This document shows, piece by piece, positions 2,494-24,799 of a stretch of 40,415 bases of DNA. The position numbers and the translations under genes are program-made. The notes beneath the pieces were generated by a model. That model was not told where the DNA came from. It searched no databases and was given only the letters and a program-made list of their open reading frames with translations. The stretch is taken from IMG/VR virus record IMGVR_UViG_2551306526_000008, positions 1 through 40,415 of that record; one strand, written 5' to 3'. The DNA is from a virus. Lineage: Duplodnaviria; Heunggongvirae; Uroviricota; Caudoviricetes. How positions within the stretch are numbered: position 1 is the stretch's first letter; every line of letters starts with the position of its first letter.

Positions 2494-4497
2494 TCAAATC
2501 AGCCCATAAATAACATTATGCAAATGAAGAGAGCCTGCTTCACCGGAAACATCAAAATCAATCCTAACTTTGCTTGCTCCAGGAGGAACAATATCTATTA
2601 ATGCGTAGAAATTCCATGTGGAGCCTGGTGGAATTGTAAATGTTGCTTTTCCCTGAACAGAGTTCCCTTCTTTATCAAAAAACTCAATGCCAGCGATTGT
2701 TGTCACTTGATTCTTAGCCCAAAAACCTAACTGGAAATATCGTCCTGGTGAGCAGTCGGAGCACTCCTGATAAAATTTTGCAGATGCTCCTATAGATGGT
2801 ATTGCTACATACAAAGACCTGGAAAACATAATATCATTTGGAACATCAGAATCCGTTCCTGCTGTAACAACACCTGAACCAGTTTGTTGAAGGCTCCAGT
2901 TAGAGTAGTTTAAAAACTGTCCACTGCCATTCGACAATGAGTTTATGTAAGCACTAACAATGTTACCTTTATCCCAATTTGCTGTTATAAAGCCAGCCCT
3001 GGGATAACAACCATAAGACATTACTTTCTTACTGTTCCCACCAATAATTTGACGCGCAGCAGCACCAGCGGCAATCTCTGTTTGCTCATATAGAGGAAGC
3101 GAACAGTTTGTTAGCGAGACGACCGCATCATCATTTGCAACGATTGGTATAGCTGAATATCCAGATGTAGTTAGCAGCGTTGAATCTTTAATACTCAATC
3201 TGGAACTGCCGCCAACCACAAATGCAACAAAACTTTGACTTGGTTGAAATTCAATGTTGCCATTTGCGTAAACAACTGTTGCGTTATCTTCAATAAAAAC
3301 AGTAGAATCAAAATAACCTTCTTTCTTACCTGCTGGCATAGAGCAACAGTTAAAAATAAATTGACCATTTCTCATGGTCAATGGACCTCCATTATCAACA
3401 ACCCAACAATTATTAAATGTCATTACCTCGCCTGAGTTTGATGGAGAATTAAATATAATTGTGTTGTTTAGACATCTTGATATTGTTACTTTGTCAAATA
3501 AAATTCTATATGAATTATCAAGAAACTCAATTCCAGCAGATGATATGAATGAAGAATTACTTATTCTTAACTCTGCTAATTCACCAGTGCCAATACCGCC
3601 AAGTAAAATCTTTTTAGATCCTAGCATCTTAAAAGATATGCCATCTAAAATTGATGTTGCATTTATTTCATCCCTATTATCATAAGAAATATTAGAGTTG
3701 CTTAACCTAATTGCATAATCACCTGATATCCCATTAATCTCAGTTAAAACGCATTTATTCGATCCTCTTAACCCACCCTTCGCGAAATCAATATCAATTA
3801 AACTCGAGAATTCTCCACTACATGGAACAACGCAATCATAACCTAGAGAGTTTATTTTATTAATAAATAATGCAATATCCCCAGCGCCGCTGTAACCAGC
3901 GTCATATACAGAAAACTCAAGGCTTGGGTTTATTCTCTTCCAATTTACACCGTTACCTTCTAAAACCATTACGTTATCAACTGCAATTGACTTGTCTACA
4001 GCTACAACAAACCCACCACCAAGTTCGAGTCCGGATACGTATGACTTTAAATATAATTTATCAGATATCGACATTCCTTGTATATCTTTAAGGGAGTTAG
4101 CGCTCTCTACCATTCCAATGTATTTGTAGCCAATATTACTTGATAGTTTTATAGATAACTGATCAGGATCATACTTCAGCACATTAGGAAAATAAAACTG
4201 CTGCGCACCATATGCATCATAAACAGCCATAGAATGGCCTTGCACAGTTACGAACTTGGCAATCTGTCCGTTATATACAGGGTAACCAGCAGCGTTAATG
4301 ATGATTGGTTGCGAAACAGGAACGTGAGAGCCATCTTCGTTTTCCACATAAACCTGAATCTGGTTTTCAGGATTTACCGGGTCAGTGTCAATTTTACCGA
4401 TATAAATTTTGCCATTGGCTACGGCTTTAAAAGAACGCGCCATAGTGAAGAGTTGCGATGGCATACTTACTACAACATTGGCTGTAATGTCTGTCAT
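2494..4497 (-). CDS. Tailspike protein: P22 gp9-like N-terminal head-binding domain with divergent receptor-binding/depolymerase body
   Basis: 667 aa; N-terminus [46 protein letters not shown]...VLKYDPDQ closely matches recalled P22 gp9 N-terminus; remainder not P22-like. Confidence 0.85.
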
Positions 4498-16397: not shown

Positions 16398-18596
16398 TTA
16401 CTGCTGTGGTTGTTGTTGAGTTGATTTTTGCAGGATGCTGCTGATGTCCATGCGCTGCGCATGACCCTGTGCCTGACTTTTCAGGACAAGCTCTGCATCA
16501 GCACGGGCATTGTCTCCTTGCTGTTGCTGGAACTGTCCGAGCAGTTTCAGAGCCTCGCGGATATCAGATTTCTGCTGACTATCGGCAGATGCGAGTATTT
16601 TCACAACATTTGCCGCTGCAACCTGAGCATCAGTCTGTGCCTGGAATGCTTTAACCTGAATGGCTGCCTGTTCGTTCTGCGCTTTCTGCAATTCAGCCTG
16701 ACCAGCAAGAAGCTGACCTTGCGCAGCAACCATAGCCGGATCTGGCTGACTGGCCTGTTGTTGTTTCGCCTGCTCAACCATCTGCTGTTCTTCTGGTGTT
16801 CTCGGCTTGATAACTCCAGACAGAAGCAACTGATTGCGGTTGTATTCTTTAAGGTCGCCCATCCCTTCGCCGTCCATATTGTCGAGAATCATCGACGATA
16901 CAAGGTCGTGCTTCGGCGTTCCTGGTGGGATAAGTGCCAGCATGGAAAGTAACGACTTAACCGTTGCATCACGGCGAGTAGCGAACGACTGACCAACATC
17001 GACAGTCACTTCATAGTTACCCTGCGAAAGGTCGTTAAGCGCGATAACCTGCCCTGTCTGACGGTCAACCACTTCACCAGTCATCAGCGCCACGTCATCG
17101 CTGCCGTCCTCATTAACGATACGCATCGGCGTATCACTGCCATAGACCTCACGCGCCATAGAAAGCCACACAACGCCAGCGCGGCGCATGGATTTAGCCA
17201 TGTTGTCCATGTAGATATAGGACTGCGTGTCCATCCGGTTAAAAATGCTATCAACGGTATCGGTGGCGACGTTGCTCGGCATGTTCTCAAGCTGCGACGC
17301 ACCTGTAATTTGCTGAATAGCCGTTCCGGTGTACTGCAATAGCCCGGCAAGAGCTGGCGGCATTTGTGTCGGAGGTGTCCAGCCAGCAACCTGAGCTTCT
17401 GAAATGACTGTTCCGTTTTTGTCCTTCTTGCTGGTCATAGGAAGAACTGCAGGTCTTTTCTTATTCCTCTCTGCCCAGTGATTCATTAATGGGCCGGGAA
17501 TGAAATCAACATCCACGATAGGAATGCCATCACCGCCAGCCTGAGTAGCGTTATCTGCAATCATGGAAACCATCAGGTTCTCAAGACGCTGTGCATCCAT
17601 CGCTTTTGCTGCGTGACCTTCGATTCGCTCCTGATTATCAACAAATGAGCGACGCCCATATACCGGGATGAGAGGAATATGTTCGCCCGGAATACGCTTC
17701 GGTTCTTCCAGCCATTCAGCGCCAGACAGAAGACCGCAATAAACTCTGCGTTTCTTCACTGTCCGCTCACCAATCAGTTCGAATGCGCCATCGGTCAGCT
17801 CGTCGACAATATCTTTGATTTGCTCTTCATCATAGATTGCCGTTTCTCCGCTAACAGGGTTGCGCCACGCCGTGAGCTTCACCTTCTCTATGCGAACTTC
17901 GTAGTAGCGACCAACATAGATGGCATCTGGCGTTGACCAGTCATATTGAGTGCCAGTGTCATCACGAGAAAGGCTTGCCGCGATGGAATCAGGGTATTCA
18001 GCCTCGAACGCTTTAGGCGTCATGGAGAACATTTCCATAGCCCACATAGCATCAGAGCGGTCATATTGCTTGCTGTCCTGATCGAAGAAGACGCATGTCG
18101 CTGGGTCGTAAACAGGAAGAAGGCTGATGCGTCGCTGCTCGTTACTCGGATCCATTTCATCTTCGTAATCGGCACACATGCGGAAACAACCGAATCCGCC
18201 CGTTACAGCATCATCAAATGCGTTATCACACGCTTCGCCACCGGATGTTTCCTGATAGTCAGCGCGGAATTTGCCGTTCATCTTTTCGGCTAACGCTTCC
18301 GATGCCTTATCGTCCTTCGGTCTGAATTTAACGCTTATGCGATTCTGTCGATACTCGCCAATGATGCGATCACATTCGCGGGCAATCTTATTCAGTTCAA
18401 AGCGCGGATAATGCTCAAACCTGCCTTCATCAAATGAGTAACCAGCGTTTGTGCTGCCTTCCCACTGTGCGCCGGACACCCGGACGAAACGTTGAGCCTC
18501 AATAATCTGCTCACGCATATCCTGCGTTGCTGACCAGGCATTATCAAAGTTGCACAGCACCTTGCGATGCCAGTCAGTCATCTTTTTTTCTGCCAT
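16398..18596 (-). CDS. Portal protein (P22 gp1-like)
   Basis: 732 aa with Gln-rich C-terminal tail; immediately downstream of terminase large subunit. Confidence 0.85.
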   Translation of the reverse strand: MAEKKMTDWHRKVLCNFDNAWSATQDMREQIIEAQRFVRVSGAQWEGSTNAGYSFDEGRFEHYPRFELNKIARECDRIIGEYRQNRISVKFRPKDDKASEALAEKMNGKFRADYQETSGGEACDNAFDDAVTGGFGCFRMCADYEDEMDPSNEQRRISLLPVYDPATCVFFDQDSKQYDRSDAMWAMEMFSMTPKAFEAEYPDSIAASLSRDDTGTQYDWSTPDAIYVGRYYEVRIEKVKLTAWRNPVSGETAIYDEEQIKDIVDELTDGAFELIGERTVKKRRVYCGLLSGAEWLEEPKRIPGEHIPLIPVYGRRSFVDNQERIEGHAAKAMDAQRLENLMVSMIADNATQAGGDGIPIVDVDFIPGPLMNHWAERNKKRPAVLPMTSKKDKNGTVISEAQVAGWTPPTQMPPALAGLLQYTGTAIQQITGASQLENMPSNVATDTVDSIFNRMDTQSYIYMDNMAKSMRRAGVVWLSMAREVYGSDTPMRIVNEDGSDDVALMTGEVVDRQTGQVIALNDLSQGNYEVTVDVGQSFATRRDATVKSLLSMLALIPPGTPKHDLVSSMILDNMDGEGMGDLKEYNRNQLLLSGVIKPRTPEEQQMVEQAKQQQASQPDPAMVAAQGQLLAGQAELQKAQNEQAAIQVKAFQAQTDAQVAAANVVKILASADSQQKSDIREALKLLGQFQQQQGDNARADAELVLKSQAQGHAQRMDISSILQKSTQQQPQQ

Positions 18597-18597
18597 A

Positions 18598-20013
18598 TCA
18601 ACCTACACCACAAGGAATTGAGTAACTGGAATAGTCGGGTTGCGCAGCCGACTCCGGGCAATGCATACACATCATCAGAGCATCAGCCAGGTTGGGAGAT
18701 GGAATACCGAGCTTCTGCTTCATTTCGACCTTAGTCATTAGCTCCAGCTTCCCGTTGTTATTGAATTTGCGCTGAATCTGCGTCAGTTCTGCAAACAGCT
18801 TCTCCAGCATCTTCTCGCCTATCGCTTCTTTGTCGAAACTCAGCATGTCGTCGGGGTCTGCATACTCACCGTGAACAACCGCCCGATATGTCAGATACAG
18901 CCTGTCAGCCAGCGCGTAATAGAATTGCGCTCGCTTATTGCGGAATACATCGCCAATAGTGCGAACGTTGTCGCCCTGTACGACTTCATCAGCCCATGCT
19001 CCGGCCTGATACGGAGCATCTTCATCGAATGGCGATTCGCTGCCCTTGAACATCGTGGCGGTGATTTTCTTGCCGGAGAAAGCTTCCGTTGTCTGTCTGC
19101 GTAGCCCAGCACCAACACCATCACCATCCCACAGGTAATGGTCAGCGCCGTCTTCAATCGCCAGCGAAGTAGCCCAGTCAGCACCCTCGTTGATGTCCAT
19201 CAGCAGGCCTTCGGCAATGCGCTTAACAACCGAACCGTGACGCGATGCATAACCTTTAGCATCCGGCCCTGTATCTGATGGGTCATGCGCAGAAACAACC
19301 GCGCCTTTCGCTTTCCATCCGAGTTTCTTGTGCGCATCGGTTGCGGCTTCAAGCCATTCACGTTTGATGATTGCCATATCACTTGCGCTTACTGGCTCAC
19401 CAAGCCAGATGTGACGATACAATGTCGGATTTCTGCGTTTGCACTCTTCCATCTCCAGACGGAGAACTTCAGGAAAGTGCGGGTTGTCGGTGTAGTTCAC
19501 CGTCAGCAGACAAATATCATCGGGAGGGTTTACTACGAATCGCTGATAGGTATCGTCGAGGATGTTTTTCGGGTTGAAGCTCACCCATATTTCGGAAAAT
19601 GGCTTGCGGATGGTTGGTATCAGGATATCCCATGATTCCTTCGTTACCGCTTCCGCTTCCTCCACCCAGCAGATATCAATACCTTCGAGCGATTTAATCT
19701 TCGTCGGGTTGTTTTTGATGCCGTAGAACATGAATTCAGCATTCGTTCCGAGATGACGAATCATGGAACGCTGAATTTCAAACTCAGCCGAATACCCTTC
19801 ACGCTCGATGGTATCTTCAAGCAACCGGATTACCGAATCGCTGATACTGTTTTGTAGTTCACGAGCGCAGAGAATACGCACTGGCTGCCGACGCGCCGCT
19901 TCAACAAGCAGCCTCGCAATTGCCCATGACTTACCGCTACCTCGACCGCCTTTGGCGACTTTGTAGCGATGCGCCTCAATGAACGGTTCAAAGATAGGAT
20001 TAATCGAGGTCAT
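18598..20013 (-). CDS. Terminase large subunit
   Basis: 471 aa; Walker A KGGRGSGKS near N-terminus; follows small terminase. Confidence 0.9.
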   Translation of the reverse strand: MTSINPIFEPFIEAHRYKVAKGGRGSGKSWAIARLLVEAARRQPVRILCARELQNSISDSVIRLLEDTIEREGYSAEFEIQRSMIRHLGTNAEFMFYGIKNNPTKIKSLEGIDICWVEEAEAVTKESWDILIPTIRKPFSEIWVSFNPKNILDDTYQRFVVNPPDDICLLTVNYTDNPHFPEVLRLEMEECKRRNPTLYRHIWLGEPVSASDMAIIKREWLEAATDAHKKLGWKAKGAVVSAHDPSDTGPDAKGYASRHGSVVKRIAEGLLMDINEGADWATSLAIEDGADHYLWDGDGVGAGLRRQTTEAFSGKKITATMFKGSESPFDEDAPYQAGAWADEVVQGDNVRTIGDVFRNKRAQFYYALADRLYLTYRAVVHGEYADPDDMLSFDKEAIGEKMLEKLFAELTQIQRKFNNNGKLELMTKVEMKQKLGIPSPNLADALMMCMHCPESAAQPDYSSYSIPCGVG

Positions 20014-20438
20014 TTTCCGAATAGAGTGCTCATCGGTGATGTTTCAATCTGGATTGCGCCGCCGTCCTTACCGACAAGCTCGTTAGTTACCTTGTCGCCA
20101 TACTTACGGGGATTCATTCGGGCCAACGCCCATTTGCGTGTATCAACGCGAAGTCTTGCCTTTGCCACTTCAGCAGCATCTGGAATCGCATTGTCAGCAA
20201 TTTCGAATATCTCTTCGAAAATAGAATCAGCTCGTGCCTCAGTTGCCTTCGCGTACTTGTCGCGAAAATCCTCATGCTTTGCCAACCAGCGGAAAACAGT
20301 GGACTTATCCGGCATACCAGGACGCTTACATACTTTCAGCAAACTTTCGCCAGAAGAAAGCAACGAGCAGATATCGTCAGCCACCTCCGGCATATAATCA
20401 GAGGGGCGACCAGCTTTTGGTTCAGTCGCCATATTCAT
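20010..20438 (-). CDS. Terminase small subunit (Sf6 gp1-like)
   Basis: 142-aa ORF; sequence from MATEPKAGRPSDYMPEVADD matches recalled Sf6 small terminase. Confidence 0.85.
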   Translation of the reverse strand: MNMATEPKAGRPSDYMPEVADDICSLLSSGESLLKVCKRPGMPDKSTVFRWLAKHEDFRDKYAKATEARADSIFEEIFEIADNAIPDAAEVAKARLRVDTRKWALARMNPRKYGDKVTNELVGKDGGAIQIETSPMSTLFGK

Positions 20439-20455: not shown

Positions 20456-20635
20456 TCAGGCTGAGGACTCTTTCGCGCCTTCAATCAGTGACTGCTTCAG
20501 CAATTCAAGTGTGCCAATCGCCTCGCATAAACTGATTTCACCATCGTAATCATGGATGACGCTTTCCAGCCGCTTGTATAGCTCTTGAGTAATTGGGAAT
20601 TTCTTCTCCTTACCAAGATCAACGACGCTTGTCAT
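20456..20635 (-). CDS. Small hypothetical protein (59 aa) upstream of terS
   Basis: Untracked ORF read by hand: MTSVVDLGKEKKFPITQELYKRLESVIHDYDGEISLCEAIGTLELLKQSLIEGAKESSA; tightly packed in late operon. Confidence 0.4.
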   Translation of the reverse strand: MTSVVDLGKEKKFPITQELYKRLESVIHDYDGEISLCEAIGTLELLKQSLIEGAKESSA

Positions 20636-20644
20636 AGAGGATTC

Positions 20645-20932
20645 CTATAATTTTGAATATCCAGACTCAAATACCTCAGCAGGAGAATATGATTCATATC
20701 CATCCTCATAGACAACGTAATAGCCTCCAGACATTGGTCGGTGCTTACAGATATATTCCGCGCTAACATCAAATGCTGCGTATTTCTTATCATCCGGATG
20801 AATAATTGCCCCATAACTAGAAGATCCAGTCTTACCAGACTGATCTGGGTTTGGCTTATGTTCTATAGATCCAATCTTCAGGGCGCGAACTTTTTTGTGG
20901 CACTGGTATCTCGGCATTTCTTGTTCAGTCAT
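20645..20932 (-). CDS. Hypothetical late-operon protein
   Basis: 95-aa ORF, co-oriented and tightly spaced with neighbours. Confidence 0.5.
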   Translation of the reverse strand: MTEQEMPRYQCHKKVRALKIGSIEHKPNPDQSGKTGSSSYGAIIHPDDKKYAAFDVSAEYICKHRPMSGGYYVVYEDGYESYSPAEVFESGYSKL

Positions 20933-20935
20933 CTC

Positions 20936-21178
20936 TTACACTCCGGTGGTGAACAGGTCTAACGCTTCCTTCGATTTACGCACCGCTTCGATAGTGCGAG
21001 ACGTGAAGTCTGGATTTGCACCGCCATCGTTGTAGTGCAACTTGAACAATTCCAGTTTCAGCTGGTCAGCACCAATGAATGCAAAGGCTTCCTCTGCCGC
21101 TGAATTGTTCTTAGATAGCAGTCGGTAAATTTCTAACTTGAATTTCTGTTCTTCAGTCATGGGAATAATCTCTGCCAT
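20936..21178 (-). CDS. Hypothetical late-operon protein
   Basis: 80-aa ORF, 3 bp from next gene. Confidence 0.5.
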   Translation of the reverse strand: MAEIIPMTEEQKFKLEIYRLLSKNNSAAEEAFAFIGADQLKLELFKLHYNDGGANPDFTSRTIEAVRKSKEALDLFTTGV

Positions 21179-21324
21179 TGTTGGCTCCGTTTATCCGTTA
21201 AAAGGGATATCAGTTAAGTTATCCCGTGTAGGGTATAAGCCATTATCAAAGCCACTCTGTAGGGAATGGCTTTTGTGATGGCAATAAAAAAGGCCGACTT
21301 AGCGACCAATTTAATAATTAATTA

Positions 21325-21567
21325 TCAATAATGTGGGAATTGGCTACTATTTTGCAAGATAACCCAAGATGGGCGAAACAAGTCAAAAACATTGATGCTT
21401 AACAGGGCTTCATTTATTGATTTTTTTTCATCCGTAGAAACTCCACGTCCTGCATTTGACATTACAAGCTGACAATTAACTATTTCACTACATTGTTTTA
21501 CATAACTACCTGGCGGCATTGATTGAAAGTTACATGTACCATTTATTATTTTATCAATTTCACTCAT
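21325..21567 (-). CDS. Hypothetical Cys-containing small protein in AT-rich moron
   Basis: 80-aa ORF with GAGG Shine-Dalgarno; locally AT-rich DNA (about 21300-21600) unlike flanking phage genes. Confidence 0.45.
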   Translation of the reverse strand: MSEIDKIINGTCNFQSMPPGSYVKQCSEIVNCQLVMSNAGRGVSTDEKKSINEALLSINVFDLFRPSWVILQNSSQFPHY

Positions 21568-21861
21568 ATCAACCTCGTCTAGTTGTTCGTCATAGATTCA
21601 GTGGCTGGCGGTGACGATTCCGCTTTTCGGGAGCTACCCTAGCCACTGTTTTATTCTATCCGATGTCTTTCCATCAGTCCGCCACCACAAAGAATCTTTT
21701 TTGCCATAAGGCTGGAGGTTCATCTTTCAGTGGCTGCCAGTGTTATTTCCCCACTTACTGGCTTGGGTTGTATCGCTGTACTGCCGTAACTGGTTGCCCA
21801 GAATAAATTCCGGTTTCATTATCAAGCCCACCCGTAGATAGGCTTTGTAATGCCTACATGG

Positions 21862-22341
21862 TTAAATGATTTGCCAGTCTTCAGCCATCAGGTCGCCAAT
21901 GGATGGAACCCATGTAGCAAGGCGGTTCTGTGAGTTTTTCAATACAAGCGTGTCATTGAAAGTTGGCTCGCCAACATATTCGCCAAAGCCATAACCCAAC
22001 GCAGACGCTAATTTTTCCCCTTTCACGAGATAAACAAACTGGTCTTTCCCATTCCATCCTGCCCGCTGCAAACTTTTGCCCTGTTTTAACGCTTCCATGG
22101 CAAGGCCGAAACTTAGCCCTGATACCGGACGATAAGCCTTTTCGAATACTTCTTTTGGACTCCAGCTAACGTAGCCATCAAAGCGATCGGTGTTAGGTTT
22201 TCCGCCATCCAGATATTCAACCAGATAGCCTTCGTCCTCGCCGTTTTCTCCGGCAGGAAGCTGCCAGCCACGAAAATCGTTATATGCCTGTCTCGTCATC
22301 GGAAAGGCGTTAATCAGTTTTACGCCAATATGCTGGGTCAT
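21862..22341 (-). CDS. Hypothetical protein with C-terminal DUF2829-like (Tad2-like) domain
   Basis: 159 aa; C-terminal ALKQGKSLQRAGWNGKDQFVYLV...WVPSIGDLMAEDWQII fits recalled DUF2829 motif pattern (GWNGK ... LAEDW); N-terminal half looks like a degenerate repeat of it. Confidence 0.6.
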   Translation of the reverse strand: MTQHIGVKLINAFPMTRQAYNDFRGWQLPAGENGEDEGYLVEYLDGGKPNTDRFDGYVSWSPKEVFEKAYRPVSGLSFGLAMEALKQGKSLQRAGWNGKDQFVYLVKGEKLASALGYGFGEYVGEPTFNDTLVLKNSQNRLATWVPSIGDLMAEDWQII

Positions 22342-22564
22342 AAAATTACCTATGGAGTTGGGAATAAAAAGCCCCGCGAATGCGAGGCTAAATCCTGGGT
22401 ATTTGTAATGAACTGGCTCTTATCTCAACGCAGCCCCTTACCGCGCGCCAGATGCTCAACTTCAAGCATCAGCAATGAGATGTTTAATCTGGATTCACTC
22501 CAGAAGTGATCACCACCCTGTCTACAGAGCCAGATGTGAAGGATGATGAGTAAAATTATCGCTA

Positions 22565-23002
22565 TCATCGAAGGCATTGCGTCCTGATGTATTCCTGCAA
22601 GTAGTTAACCTGCGCGGTTATCTTGTCGATTCCACTTCTGAGACGGTAATAATTGAGTTCAGCATCTGCTGTAAGTCTTGGGCTTTCTCCATCGCCCATG
22701 CTGCTGGCTCCGGTCGTTGACTTTGCACAGGTGGCGGCGACTTGCAGCCGCTTACGCCCAGCAGAAACATCAGCACGGAGACTTTCGATAGTCGCGTTAG
22801 CATCAGCAAGCTCCTTTGTGTATCTGGCGTCGAGTTCTGCTACATCACGTTGACGCTTCTGCATGTCAGCGATGATGTACGTGGCTTTATCGCGCTGTTC
22901 TTTATAGGTAATGGCGTTATCACGGTAATGATTAACAGCCCATGACAGACAGACGATGATGCAGATAACCAGAGCGGAGATAATCGCGGTGACTCTGCTC
23001 AT
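22565..23002 (-). CDS. Rz: Rz i-spanin
   Basis: 145 aa; [34 protein letters not shown] matches recalled lambda Rz N-terminus; follows endolysin. Confidence 0.85.
22618..22809 (-). CDS. Rz1: Rz1 o-spanin lipoprotein embedded in Rz (+1 frame)
   Basis: 63-aa ORF wholly inside Rz; lipobox-like LLGVSGC followed by Pro-rich segment. Confidence 0.6.
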
Positions 23003-23475
23003 ACATCAATCTCTCTGACCGTTCCGCCAGCTTCTTTGAATTTTGCAATCAGGCTGTCAGCCTTATGCTCGAACTGACCATAACCAGCGCCCGGCAGTGA
23101 AGCCCAGATATTGCTGCAACGGTCGATAGCCTGACGAATATCACCGCGATCAATCATCGGTAAAGCGCCACGCTCTTTAATCTGTTGCAATGCCACAGCG
23201 TCCTGGCTTTTCGGAGAGAAGTCTTTCAGGCCAAGCTGCTTACGATAGGCATCCCACCAACGGGAAAGAAGCTGGTAACGTCCGGCTGCTGTTGATTTTA
23301 GTTTTGGGTTTAGCGTGACAAGTTTGCGAGGGTGATCGGAGTAATCAGTGAATAGCTCTCCGCCTACAATGACGTCATAACCATGATTTCTGGTTTTCTG
23401 TCGTCCGTTATCAGTTCCCTCTGACCACGCCAGCATATCGAGGAACGCCTTACGTTGATTATTGATTTCCACCAT
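22999..23475 (-). CDS. R: Endolysin R (lambda-type lytic transglycosylase)
   Basis: 158 aa, essentially identical to recalled lambda R ([35 protein letters not shown]...). Confidence 0.95.
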
Positions 23476-23782
23476 CTTCTACTCCGGCTTTTTTAGCAGC
23501 GAAGCGTTTGATAAGCGAACCAATCGAGTCAGTACCGATGTAGCCGATGAACACGCTCGTTATATAAGCGAGATTGCTACTTAGTCCGGCGAAGTCGAGA
23601 AGGTCACGAATGAACCAGGCGATAATGGCGCACATCGTTGCGTCGATTACTGTTTTTGTAAACGCACCGCCATTATATCTGCCGCGAAGGTACGCCATTG
23701 CAAACGCAAGGATTGCCCCGATGCCTTGTTCCTTTGCCGCGAGAATAGCGGCTAACAGGTCATGTTTTTCTGGCATCTTCAT
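23459..23782 (-). CDS. S: Holin S (lambda S107-type)
   Basis: 107 aa, [39 protein letters not shown] matches recalled lambda S. Confidence 0.95.
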
Positions 23783-24310: not shown

Positions 24311-24799
24311 CTATGCTACATGTTTAATTTTCTCTACACGTTTCCGGTTTTTAAACGCACCATCCAGAACAGGGTAAATCATAAACAACGAGGAATTGAG
24401 GATTTCGTCAACTTCCCGGCGACAGGTTGCGAGCGATGGTTTTTGAATGCGCCCGCCGCCCCGGCATAACATCTTGCGAGGTCTTGCGACGCGATGATAG
24501 TAAGATGCAATGGCGTGCTTGGAAGAGCCGTGGGCGTAGTAACTGAGGAGGATGCCAAAGGCTTTCTTGTCAATGTACATGACGGAATCGACGACCTGAG
24601 AAATCAACATTCCATCATCATCATTACACATTGGCCTTGTCATAACTCTTCCCGGCTCTACGCTCTCCATGAACTTCGCTATTACGCTGCTCATGCGCTT
24701 TTCCAGACGACCCGAATAAACCCATGCGCCCCACAGTTCAAGCCATCCATTCAGCCAATCGTGCTGCTCTTTGGTGAGGTTTAGTTCTCTTATGCTCAT
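24311..24799 (-). CDS. Q: Late antiterminator Q
   Basis: 162-aa ORF directly upstream of late promoter and lysis cassette, downstream of nin genes. Confidence 0.7.
   Translation of the reverse strand: MSIRELNLTKEQHDWLNGWLELWGAWVYSGRLEKRMSSVIAKFMESVEPGRVMTRPMCNDDDGMLISQVVDSVMYIDKKAFGILLSYYAHGSSKHAIASYYHRVARPRKMLCRGGGRIQKPSLATCRREVDEILNSSLFMIYPVLDGAFKNRKRVEKIKHVA

Follow-up and report, generated by a model that had tools for sequence, protein, structure and literature searches.

What might a small domain, fused in front of a nucleotide-signal sponge of an already known family, contribute to a phage protein directed against host immunity? This question is raised by a gene at positions 21862-22341 (minus strand) of the IMG/VR virus record IMGVR_UViG_2551306526_000008, a member of the Caudoviricetes of which positions 1 to 40,415, hereafter the window, constitute the whole 40,415-nucleotide stretch of DNA analysed. 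The gene encodes a protein of 159 amino acids (plus stop) between the lysis cassette and the terminase genes, where the initial annotation of this DNA had located it, and both sequence strings quoted in that annotation were retrieved in the translation. The protein combines a C-terminal Tad2-like domain (residues 75-159; 21865-22119, minus strand) with an N-terminal companion domain (residues 1-74; 22120-22341, minus strand) that matched nothing in Pfam, NCBIfam or the PDB. We consider, with a probability of about 0.72, that it represents a two-domain phage counter-defence protein, in which a Tad2-type sponge would be coupled to an N-terminal module for oligomerisation or stabilisation and carried as cargo of the late operon. 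As such, it is an ordinary member of the known Tad2 family, the companion domain being the sole part that goes beyond routine annotation.

The open reading frame (ORF) begins at an ATG (22341) that is the first start codon past the upstream stop, with no longer alternative start, and it matches phrog_872 across its full 159-residue length (E 1.9e-69). A total of 2928 homologs were recovered; among the 120 best, the majority have both domains at full length and measure about 154-175 residues. The C-terminal half, initially annotated as DUF2829/Tad2-like, is a genuine Tad2 domain according to profile, fold and ligand-contacting residues alike. The Pfam hidden Markov model for this family, PF11195 (Thoeris anti-defense 2-like), matched residues 77-159 over profile positions 2-73 of 73 with a score of 78.3 bits (E 6.4e-22), against a gathering cut-off of 25 bits and far beyond chance. 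The best match among PDB sequences, searched with phmmer, was the Tad2 protein of phage SPO1 (Gp34.65; 8SME and 8WJE; E 3e-26), which aligned without gaps over residues 75-159 with 41 of 85 positions identical (48%). It was followed by Myroides ModTad2 (9EIB and 8V3E; about 2e-18), while HgmTad2/AcrIIA7 and SptTad2 gave weaker and partial matches limited to residues 76-111 or 76-113.

The comparison of predicted structures led to the same assignment. An AlphaFold2 model built with 35 homologs reached a mean predicted local distance difference test (pLDDT) value of 87.5 and showed, in its Tad2 part, helices at residues 78-86, 108-115 and 148-152 and strands at residues 91-93, 102-106, 131-135, 141-143 and 156-158. 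When this model was searched against the PDB with Foldseek, the first 24 chains all belonged to the Tad2 family, the SPO1 Tad2 chains being matched with E-values down to 3e-9 and target-normalised template modelling scores of 0.84-0.92, and past this family only noise (E>0.5) was obtained.

In SPO1 Tad2, the signal molecule 1''-3' glyco-cyclic ADP-ribose (gcADPR) is held by W25, N26, W73 and D79, with S76 coordinating a water molecule (Yirmiya et al., bioRxiv 10.1101/2023.05.01.538930). All five residues are kept in the protein studied here, as W96, N97, W144, D150 and S147, respectively; across 35 family members no substitution was seen at W96, W144 or D150, and the conservation of N97 and S147 is 90% or higher. 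The cyclic-dinucleotide (cGG/cGAMP) binding of HgmTad2 and SptTad2 needs an insertion of 35-41 residues after strand beta2 that is absent from SPO1 Tad2, which bound gcADPR isomers only and no other cyclic nucleotide tested (Li et al., PMC10680739). Here, the domain aligns to SPO1 Tad2 without gaps, which makes its beta2-beta3 insertion one of the short type, the partial nature of the HgmTad2 and SptTad2 matches likewise separating the domain from long-insertion members of the family. By analogy, gcADPR-type signals would be expected to bind to a Tad2 domain with such a short insertion, and cyclic dinucleotides would not.

The beta2-beta3 insertion (residues 106-130; 21940-22026) is also a hypervariable part of the family, with a mean pairwise identity of 32% and many insertions and deletions, and in phage Kapi1 an N-terminal domain of 100% identity is joined to a different and longer Tad2 domain, within a protein of 173 residues (3204-3725 of the compared Kapi1 stretch). 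Together, this hypervariability and this swap suggest recombination within the gene or diversifying selection on the insertion. In other Tad2 proteins, the same insertion forms a second ligand site.

The N-terminal domain displays a distinct organisation. Modelled alone with AlphaFold2, residues 1-74 reached a pLDDT of 94.6 and adopted a beta-alpha-beta-beta-alpha arrangement, with strands at residues 10-14, 38-43 and 57-62 and helices at residues 17-24 and 63-69. No NCBIfam model matched the domain, and neither phmmer nor a 49-sequence profile of it matched any PDB sequence, in a copy of the database that was devoid of the gp68 structure discussed below. Among 113 full-length homologs, the mean pairwise identity of the N-terminal domain is 71%, compared with 53% for the whole Tad2 domain. 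Across 149 representatives of many architectures, G38 is invariant and at least 90% conservation was observed at G6, K8, A12, M15, R17, Y20, N21, R24, W26, P29, E32 and D36, then at L40, V41, E42, Y43, D45, G46, G47 and N50, and finally at G56, Y57, S59, W60, S61, P62, F66 and Y70.

Several named proteins were considered as possible identities for this domain and set aside. Lockin does not occur in INPHARED and its pocket is hexameric and rich in lysine, whereas the domain occurs in 131 INPHARED records. The R10, W38 and H61 of Acb5 have no counterpart in the domain, which contains no conserved histidine, and the phage hosts differ. TadIV-1 is a protein of 92 residues confined to Straboviridae. 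An identity with Tad3 is unlikely: in a figure that also has Tad3 annotated, Fedorova et al. still describe the fold of the gp68 N-terminal domain as of unknown function. Finally, "PDB 6E3C", given in one methods section as a frequent extra domain of sponges, corresponds to the Dec protein of phage L and did not match the N-terminal domain profile.

The distribution of the domain extends well beyond the family of the protein studied here. A full HMMER scan with residues 1-74 on 1.84 billion cluster representatives recovered 1566 proteins at E<=1e-3, including 838 at E<=1e-10, and in the top 149 (72-370 residues) the domain lies in N-terminal, central or C-terminal position. Pfam scans of these 149 proteins identified fusions to the Tad2-like PF11195 in 51, to crAss001_48 (PF21825) in 38 and to Phage_gp49_66 (PF13876) in 22. 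PF21825 corresponds to the Sequestin sponge family (Tal et al.) and PF13876 to the Acb4 sponge family, of the type that captures signals of cyclic-oligonucleotide-based antiphage signalling systems (CBASS). The order of the modules varies, as illustrated by one protein made of the N-terminal domain, Tad2 and Sequestin (P0123), another of Acb4, the N-terminal domain and Sequestin (P0262), and a third of Acb4 followed by the N-terminal domain (P0132). In the supplementary tables of Tal et al., the GYLVEY and SWSP motifs of the domain are found at least 85 times in Sequestin homologs, and 2 Lockin homologs bear the domain in a short-loop form, N-terminal to the Lockin part. The text of that study is silent on the domain; its fusion search ran through Pfam domain architectures, to which the domain was invisible because it has no Pfam model.

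Phages of diverse hosts carry the domain. Using tblastn, it was detected in 131 INPHARED records, including phages of Escherichia (50), Vibrio (17), Klebsiella (14) and Pseudomonas (12), crAss-like phages (6) and others. Most of the listed phages that infect Escherichia, Vibrio, Pseudomonas, Klebsiella or Rhizobium carry it at 50-65% identity, and the crAss-like phages at 41-44%. Stand-alone relatives of 65-92 residues were found in BFVD, all of them unnamed viral proteins.

A more distant relative provides the sole property assigned to this domain so far. The N-terminal domain profile aligned with residues 2-66 of gp68 of the Pectobacterium phage vB_PatP_CB1 (hhalign probability 96.1%, E 3.3e-9, 33% identity over 64 columns). 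The gp68 protein, or "RyR Tad", sponges gcADPR through a C-terminal RyR Repeat12-like domain; its N-terminal part alone (gp68_N, residues 1-86) did not inhibit type I Thoeris, and in the crystal this part forms a strand-swapped dimer in which beta1 completes the five-stranded sheet of the partner, both domains adding to dimerisation (Fedorova et al., bioRxiv 10.64898/2026.06.04.730250). As judged from sequence comparisons, the domain or its diverged relatives are thus fused to five unrelated sponge families, namely Tad2, Sequestin, Acb4, Lockin and RyR-Tad.

On this basis, residues 75-159 would assemble into a homotetramer, as SPO1 Tad2 does, and the inter-protomer pockets lined by W96, N97, W144 and D150 would bind the Thoeris signal made by the Toll/interleukin-1 receptor (TIR) protein. 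This signal would be 1''-3' gcADPR, also named 3' cyclic ADP-ribose (3'cADPR), and probably 1''-2' gcADPR as well, and its capture would leave the Thoeris effector inactive. Residues 1-74 would most likely act as a module that oligomerises or stabilises the sponge, because the relative gp68_N is a strand-swapped dimer devoid of anti-type I Thoeris activity of its own; a further activity is possible.

Several observations weigh against this proposal. The literature consulted provided no experiment on this protein or on any member of the subfamily that joins the N-terminal domain to Tad2. The N-terminal domain is joined directly to helix alpha1 of the sponge, which bears on its fit into a tetramer. 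Sponges have been argued to act best when produced early (Yirmiya et al., bioRxiv 10.1101/2023.05.01.538930), whereas the gene is here located in a late operon. Five secondary ligand contacts of SPO1 Tad2 are changed (T78 to G, I63 to L, T65 to N, D67 to Q and H71 to A), and Tad2 homologs are functionally diverse, with members that block Thoeris types I, II or IV, CBASS or Pycsar (a 2025 preprint), so that homology alone does not settle the ligand, the assignment of which is to be taken as likely, not certain. Lastly, the higher conservation of the N-terminal domain relative to the sponge and its stand-alone occurrence exceed what would be expected from a plain oligomerisation module.

Because of this last excess, we retain as a possible explanation that the N-terminal domain is itself an anti-defence element, which would sponge another nucleotide signal or bind an immune protein of the host; this is compatible with the function attributed to the Tad2 part. 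The protein would then block two pathways, in the manner of the known Acb4-Tad2 and Acb4-Sequestin fusions. The recurrent association of the domain with Tad2, Sequestin and Acb4 in changing order, its presence ahead of the Lockin and RyR-Tad sponges, its persistence among phages of distant hosts and the near invariance of K8, R17, Y20, N21, R24, W26, Y43, Y57 and W60 are all consistent with such a role, for which Sequestin provides a precedent, having itself been found through its fusion to known sponges in a Pfam-only search. By contrast, gp68_N was inactive against type I Thoeris and serves dimerisation in the crystal, a negative result that concerns the sole system reported and a diverged, shorter form of the domain. 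The domain is also net acidic, by residue count from the sequence, whereas the pockets of known sponges are positively charged, and its fold matched no nucleotide-binding domain. Along the same line, we tentatively suggest that the N-terminal domain and its stand-alone relatives, including a 95-residue ORF of the window described below, form a further family directed against immune signalling, whether as sponges or enzymes acting on a signal outside those assayed so far, or as binders of host immune components. Such a family would have been missed by Pfam-based searches for domains fused to sponges, because no Pfam model covers it.

It is rather doubtful that the Tad2 domain captures a signal other than 3'cADPR, such as histidine-ADP-ribose (His-ADPR, type II Thoeris), N7-cyclic ADP-ribose (N7-cADPR, type IV Thoeris) or cyclic CMP or UMP (cCMP/cUMP, Pycsar). 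Tad2 homologs with these specificities exist, ModTad2, which was solved with His-ADPR, is also a strong match (E 1.6e-18), and the five substituted secondary positions lie in the pocket. However, the closest solved relative is by far the gcADPR-binding SPO1 Tad2 (95 versus 70 bits), and the four main contact residues are identical to those of SPO1 Tad2.

Two further explanations are highly improbable. The tandem duplication proposed in the initial annotation, with the N-terminal half as a degenerate second Tad2 copy, relies on a loose visual likeness (a helix, then G-W, then YLV) and on a BLASTP alignment of 48 residues at 29% identity, but this alignment has an E-value of 1.6, PF11195 did not match residues 1-74, and the two halves of the family alignment, when compared profile against profile, gave a probability of 0.2%; the Tad2 assignment and the upstream hairpin of that annotation thus stand, and its duplication does not. 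An AcrIIA7-like anti-CRISPR function, as annotated for homologs in phages Huey, Louie and Mimir124, finds some echo in the "anti-CRISPR protein" labels of phage homologs, which derive from AcrIIA7, and in a weak, partial match to AcrIIA7/HgmTad2 (residues 76-111 only, E 4e-6 to 2e-5), but E. coli, the host indicated by the surrounding genes, is not known to have type II CRISPR-Cas. Moreover, the anti-Cas9 activity of AcrIIA7/HgmTad2 was not reproduced by Li et al., and in the view of Yirmiya et al. DUF2829 proteins counteract Thoeris and not CRISPR.

The gene lies in a P22-like late operon, in which Q, the holin, the endolysin and Rz are encoded upstream of it and the terminase downstream. The terminator-like hairpin announced just upstream of the start codon was recovered both by a terminator scan and in the minimum-free-energy fold of the region. 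Located on the minus strand (22389..22370; 22360-22389 with its T-run), it reads AGCCTCGC-ATTC-GCGGGGCT followed by TTTTATT (tail TTTTATTCCC) and comprises 8 pairs, 6 of them G-C, around a loop of 4. It stands after a 50-residue ORF of the Sf6 gene 65 type and 28 nucleotides upstream of the ATG of the Tad2-type gene, and the part of phage epsilon34 that matches the hairpin region carries a feature annotated as "terminator". From Rz to the ATG, a promoter scan of the minus strand predicted no sigma-70-like promoter. In lambdoid late transcription, Q-modified RNA polymerase passes through terminators of this kind. Late, Q-dependent expression of the Tad2-type gene would follow from such passage, the gene being transcribed during lytic growth by read-through of the hairpin.

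The surroundings of the gene are those of a P22-like (Lederbergvirus) prophage of E. coli, and the DNA of the window matches phages HZ41, Huey, Kapi1 and IME10. One end of the prophage carries a tRNA-Arg(CCT) gene (1009-1083) adjoining the integrase gene (1209-2402), and this end (1009-2402) is likely the attachment site. Then come the genes for the tailspike (2494-4497), the portal (16398-18596) and the large (18598-20013) and small (20010-20438) terminase subunits on one side of the locus, with Rz and its embedded Rz1 (22565-23002), the endolysin (22999-23475), the holin (23459-23782) and the Q antiterminator (24311-24799) on the other. The Tad2-type gene is 100% identical to one found in E. 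coli 55989 and other strains, and it is present in 45 of 5426 complete E. coli genomes, every time in the chromosome.

Within this prophage, the gene occupies a slot (20456-22577) between the gene-65-type ORF and a DUF2560 gene, the content of which varies among P22-like phages. The left boundary is formed by the 50-residue ORF (22425-22577, minus strand; phrog_11822, E 8.6e-38), in a position equivalent to Sf6p65, and the conserved right-hand neighbour by the DUF2560 gene (20936-21178, minus strand; PF10834, E 5.5e-37), which the Sf6 map identifies as the equivalent of Sf6p67. In Sf6, the equivalent slot is occupied by gene 66, of the PF13876/Acb4 family (E 3.6e-35; compared Sf6 stretch 201-1376), and in other P22-like phages the part matching the slot region bears annotated Rha-type regulators or a GIY-YIG nuclease. 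The lysis-terminase slot of P22-like phages is therefore put forward as a candidate anti-defence hotspot which, with its interchangeable anti-signalling cargo, offers a practical place to seek counter-defence genes in a well-studied group of phages.

A stand-alone distant relative of the N-terminal domain is encoded close by, in the same slot. This 95-residue ORF (20645-20932, minus strand; phrog_872, E 1.3e-9) shares a motif match with the N-terminal domain (BLASTP E 7e-6), and the profile of its family aligned with that of the domain with an hhalign probability of 86.7% (E 4.4e-6). It has about 444 homologs, mostly of about 95 residues, one of which is fused to Sequestin. Its TAA stop codon is in frame with the next ORF, of 59 residues (20456-20635, minus strand; phrog_3546), and in some genomes (P0270-P0273) a Glu codon replaces this TAA, merging both ORFs into a single protein of 158 residues.

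The slot region also contains an AT-rich island (21292-21600, minus strand) with a GC content of 0.33, versus about 0.48 in its flanks. An 80-residue ORF inside the island (21325-21567), for which Pfam gave no significant match and PHROG gave none, lies between a promoter-like site (21572..21545) and a hairpin resembling a terminator (21307..21292). None of the phage records covered at least 80% of a 682-bp query (21180-21861) containing this island, which may, with its ORF, represent a self-transcribed moron.

Besides the slot, the interest of this locus resides in the companion domain. The Tad2 call adds little in itself, since the RefSeq name of the gene is already "DUF2829 domain-containing protein", the Pfam family is already named Tad2-like and several crystal structures of the family exist. 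The N-terminal domain, by contrast, occurs in the model phage N4, on five sponge families when its diverged relatives are included, and also alone, yet it is unnamed and without a Pfam model, and the only property assigned to it, the strand-swapped dimer, comes from one preprint. It would serve sponges as a universal handle for oligomerisation, or else act as one more inhibitor.

Comparison with known systems situates the protein among these sponges. With the family's founding member, SPO1 Tad2 (Gp34.65; 8SME, 8SMF, 8SMG and 8WJE), it shares the predicted fold, the four main contacts and the short insertion; SPO1 Tad2, however, is a single-domain protein of 89 residues from a Bacillus myovirus, whereas a 74-residue N-terminal domain is added here and the gene is carried by a temperate P22-like phage, in a cargo slot of its late operon. 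Phage N4 gp49 (EF056009.1, 34003-34485; 160 residues) has the same two domains, with an N-terminal domain 54% identical and a Tad2 domain matching PF11195 at E 8e-24. N4 gp49 adjoins gp48, a gene of the Acb4 family, in an N4-like anti-signalling hotspot named by the Fedorova preprint, but N4 is a lytic schitovirus and the locus is a different one. In the N4 record (compared stretch 1109-1962), PF13876, described as "N4 Gp49/Sf6 gene 66" (Acb4), is carried by gp48, and gp49 is the protein with the N-terminal and Tad2 domains; the Pfam family name and the numbering of the N4 record are therefore offset by one gene.

RyR-Tad gp68 resembles the protein in the homology of its N-terminal domain (residues 2-66) to residues 1-70 here and in the gcADPR sponge domain that follows. 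Its sponge is nevertheless an all-helical, dimer-forming RyR Repeat12-like domain and not Tad2, and its N-terminal domain is shorter and diverged, keeping the strand core (K8, the PMT motif, GYLV-Y, SWSP and VF), without the DGGKPN loop and most of the R17/N21/R24/W26 helix motif. The modular, "beads on a string" construction recalls the fused multi-sponges, such as Acb4-Tad2 of Pm86, Tad2-Sequestin, and Acb4-Sequestin of Ab09 and YH6, and the N-terminal domain occurs in chains of this kind; in those fusions both parts are proven sponges, whereas the N-terminal domain has no known ligand. Finally, Sf6 gene 66 (PF13876, Acb4) occupies the same P22-like slot, bounded by the gene-65-type ORF and the DUF2560 gene, but it is of unrelated fold and family, belonging to sponges of CBASS signals, where the protein studied here belongs to sponges of Thoeris signals.

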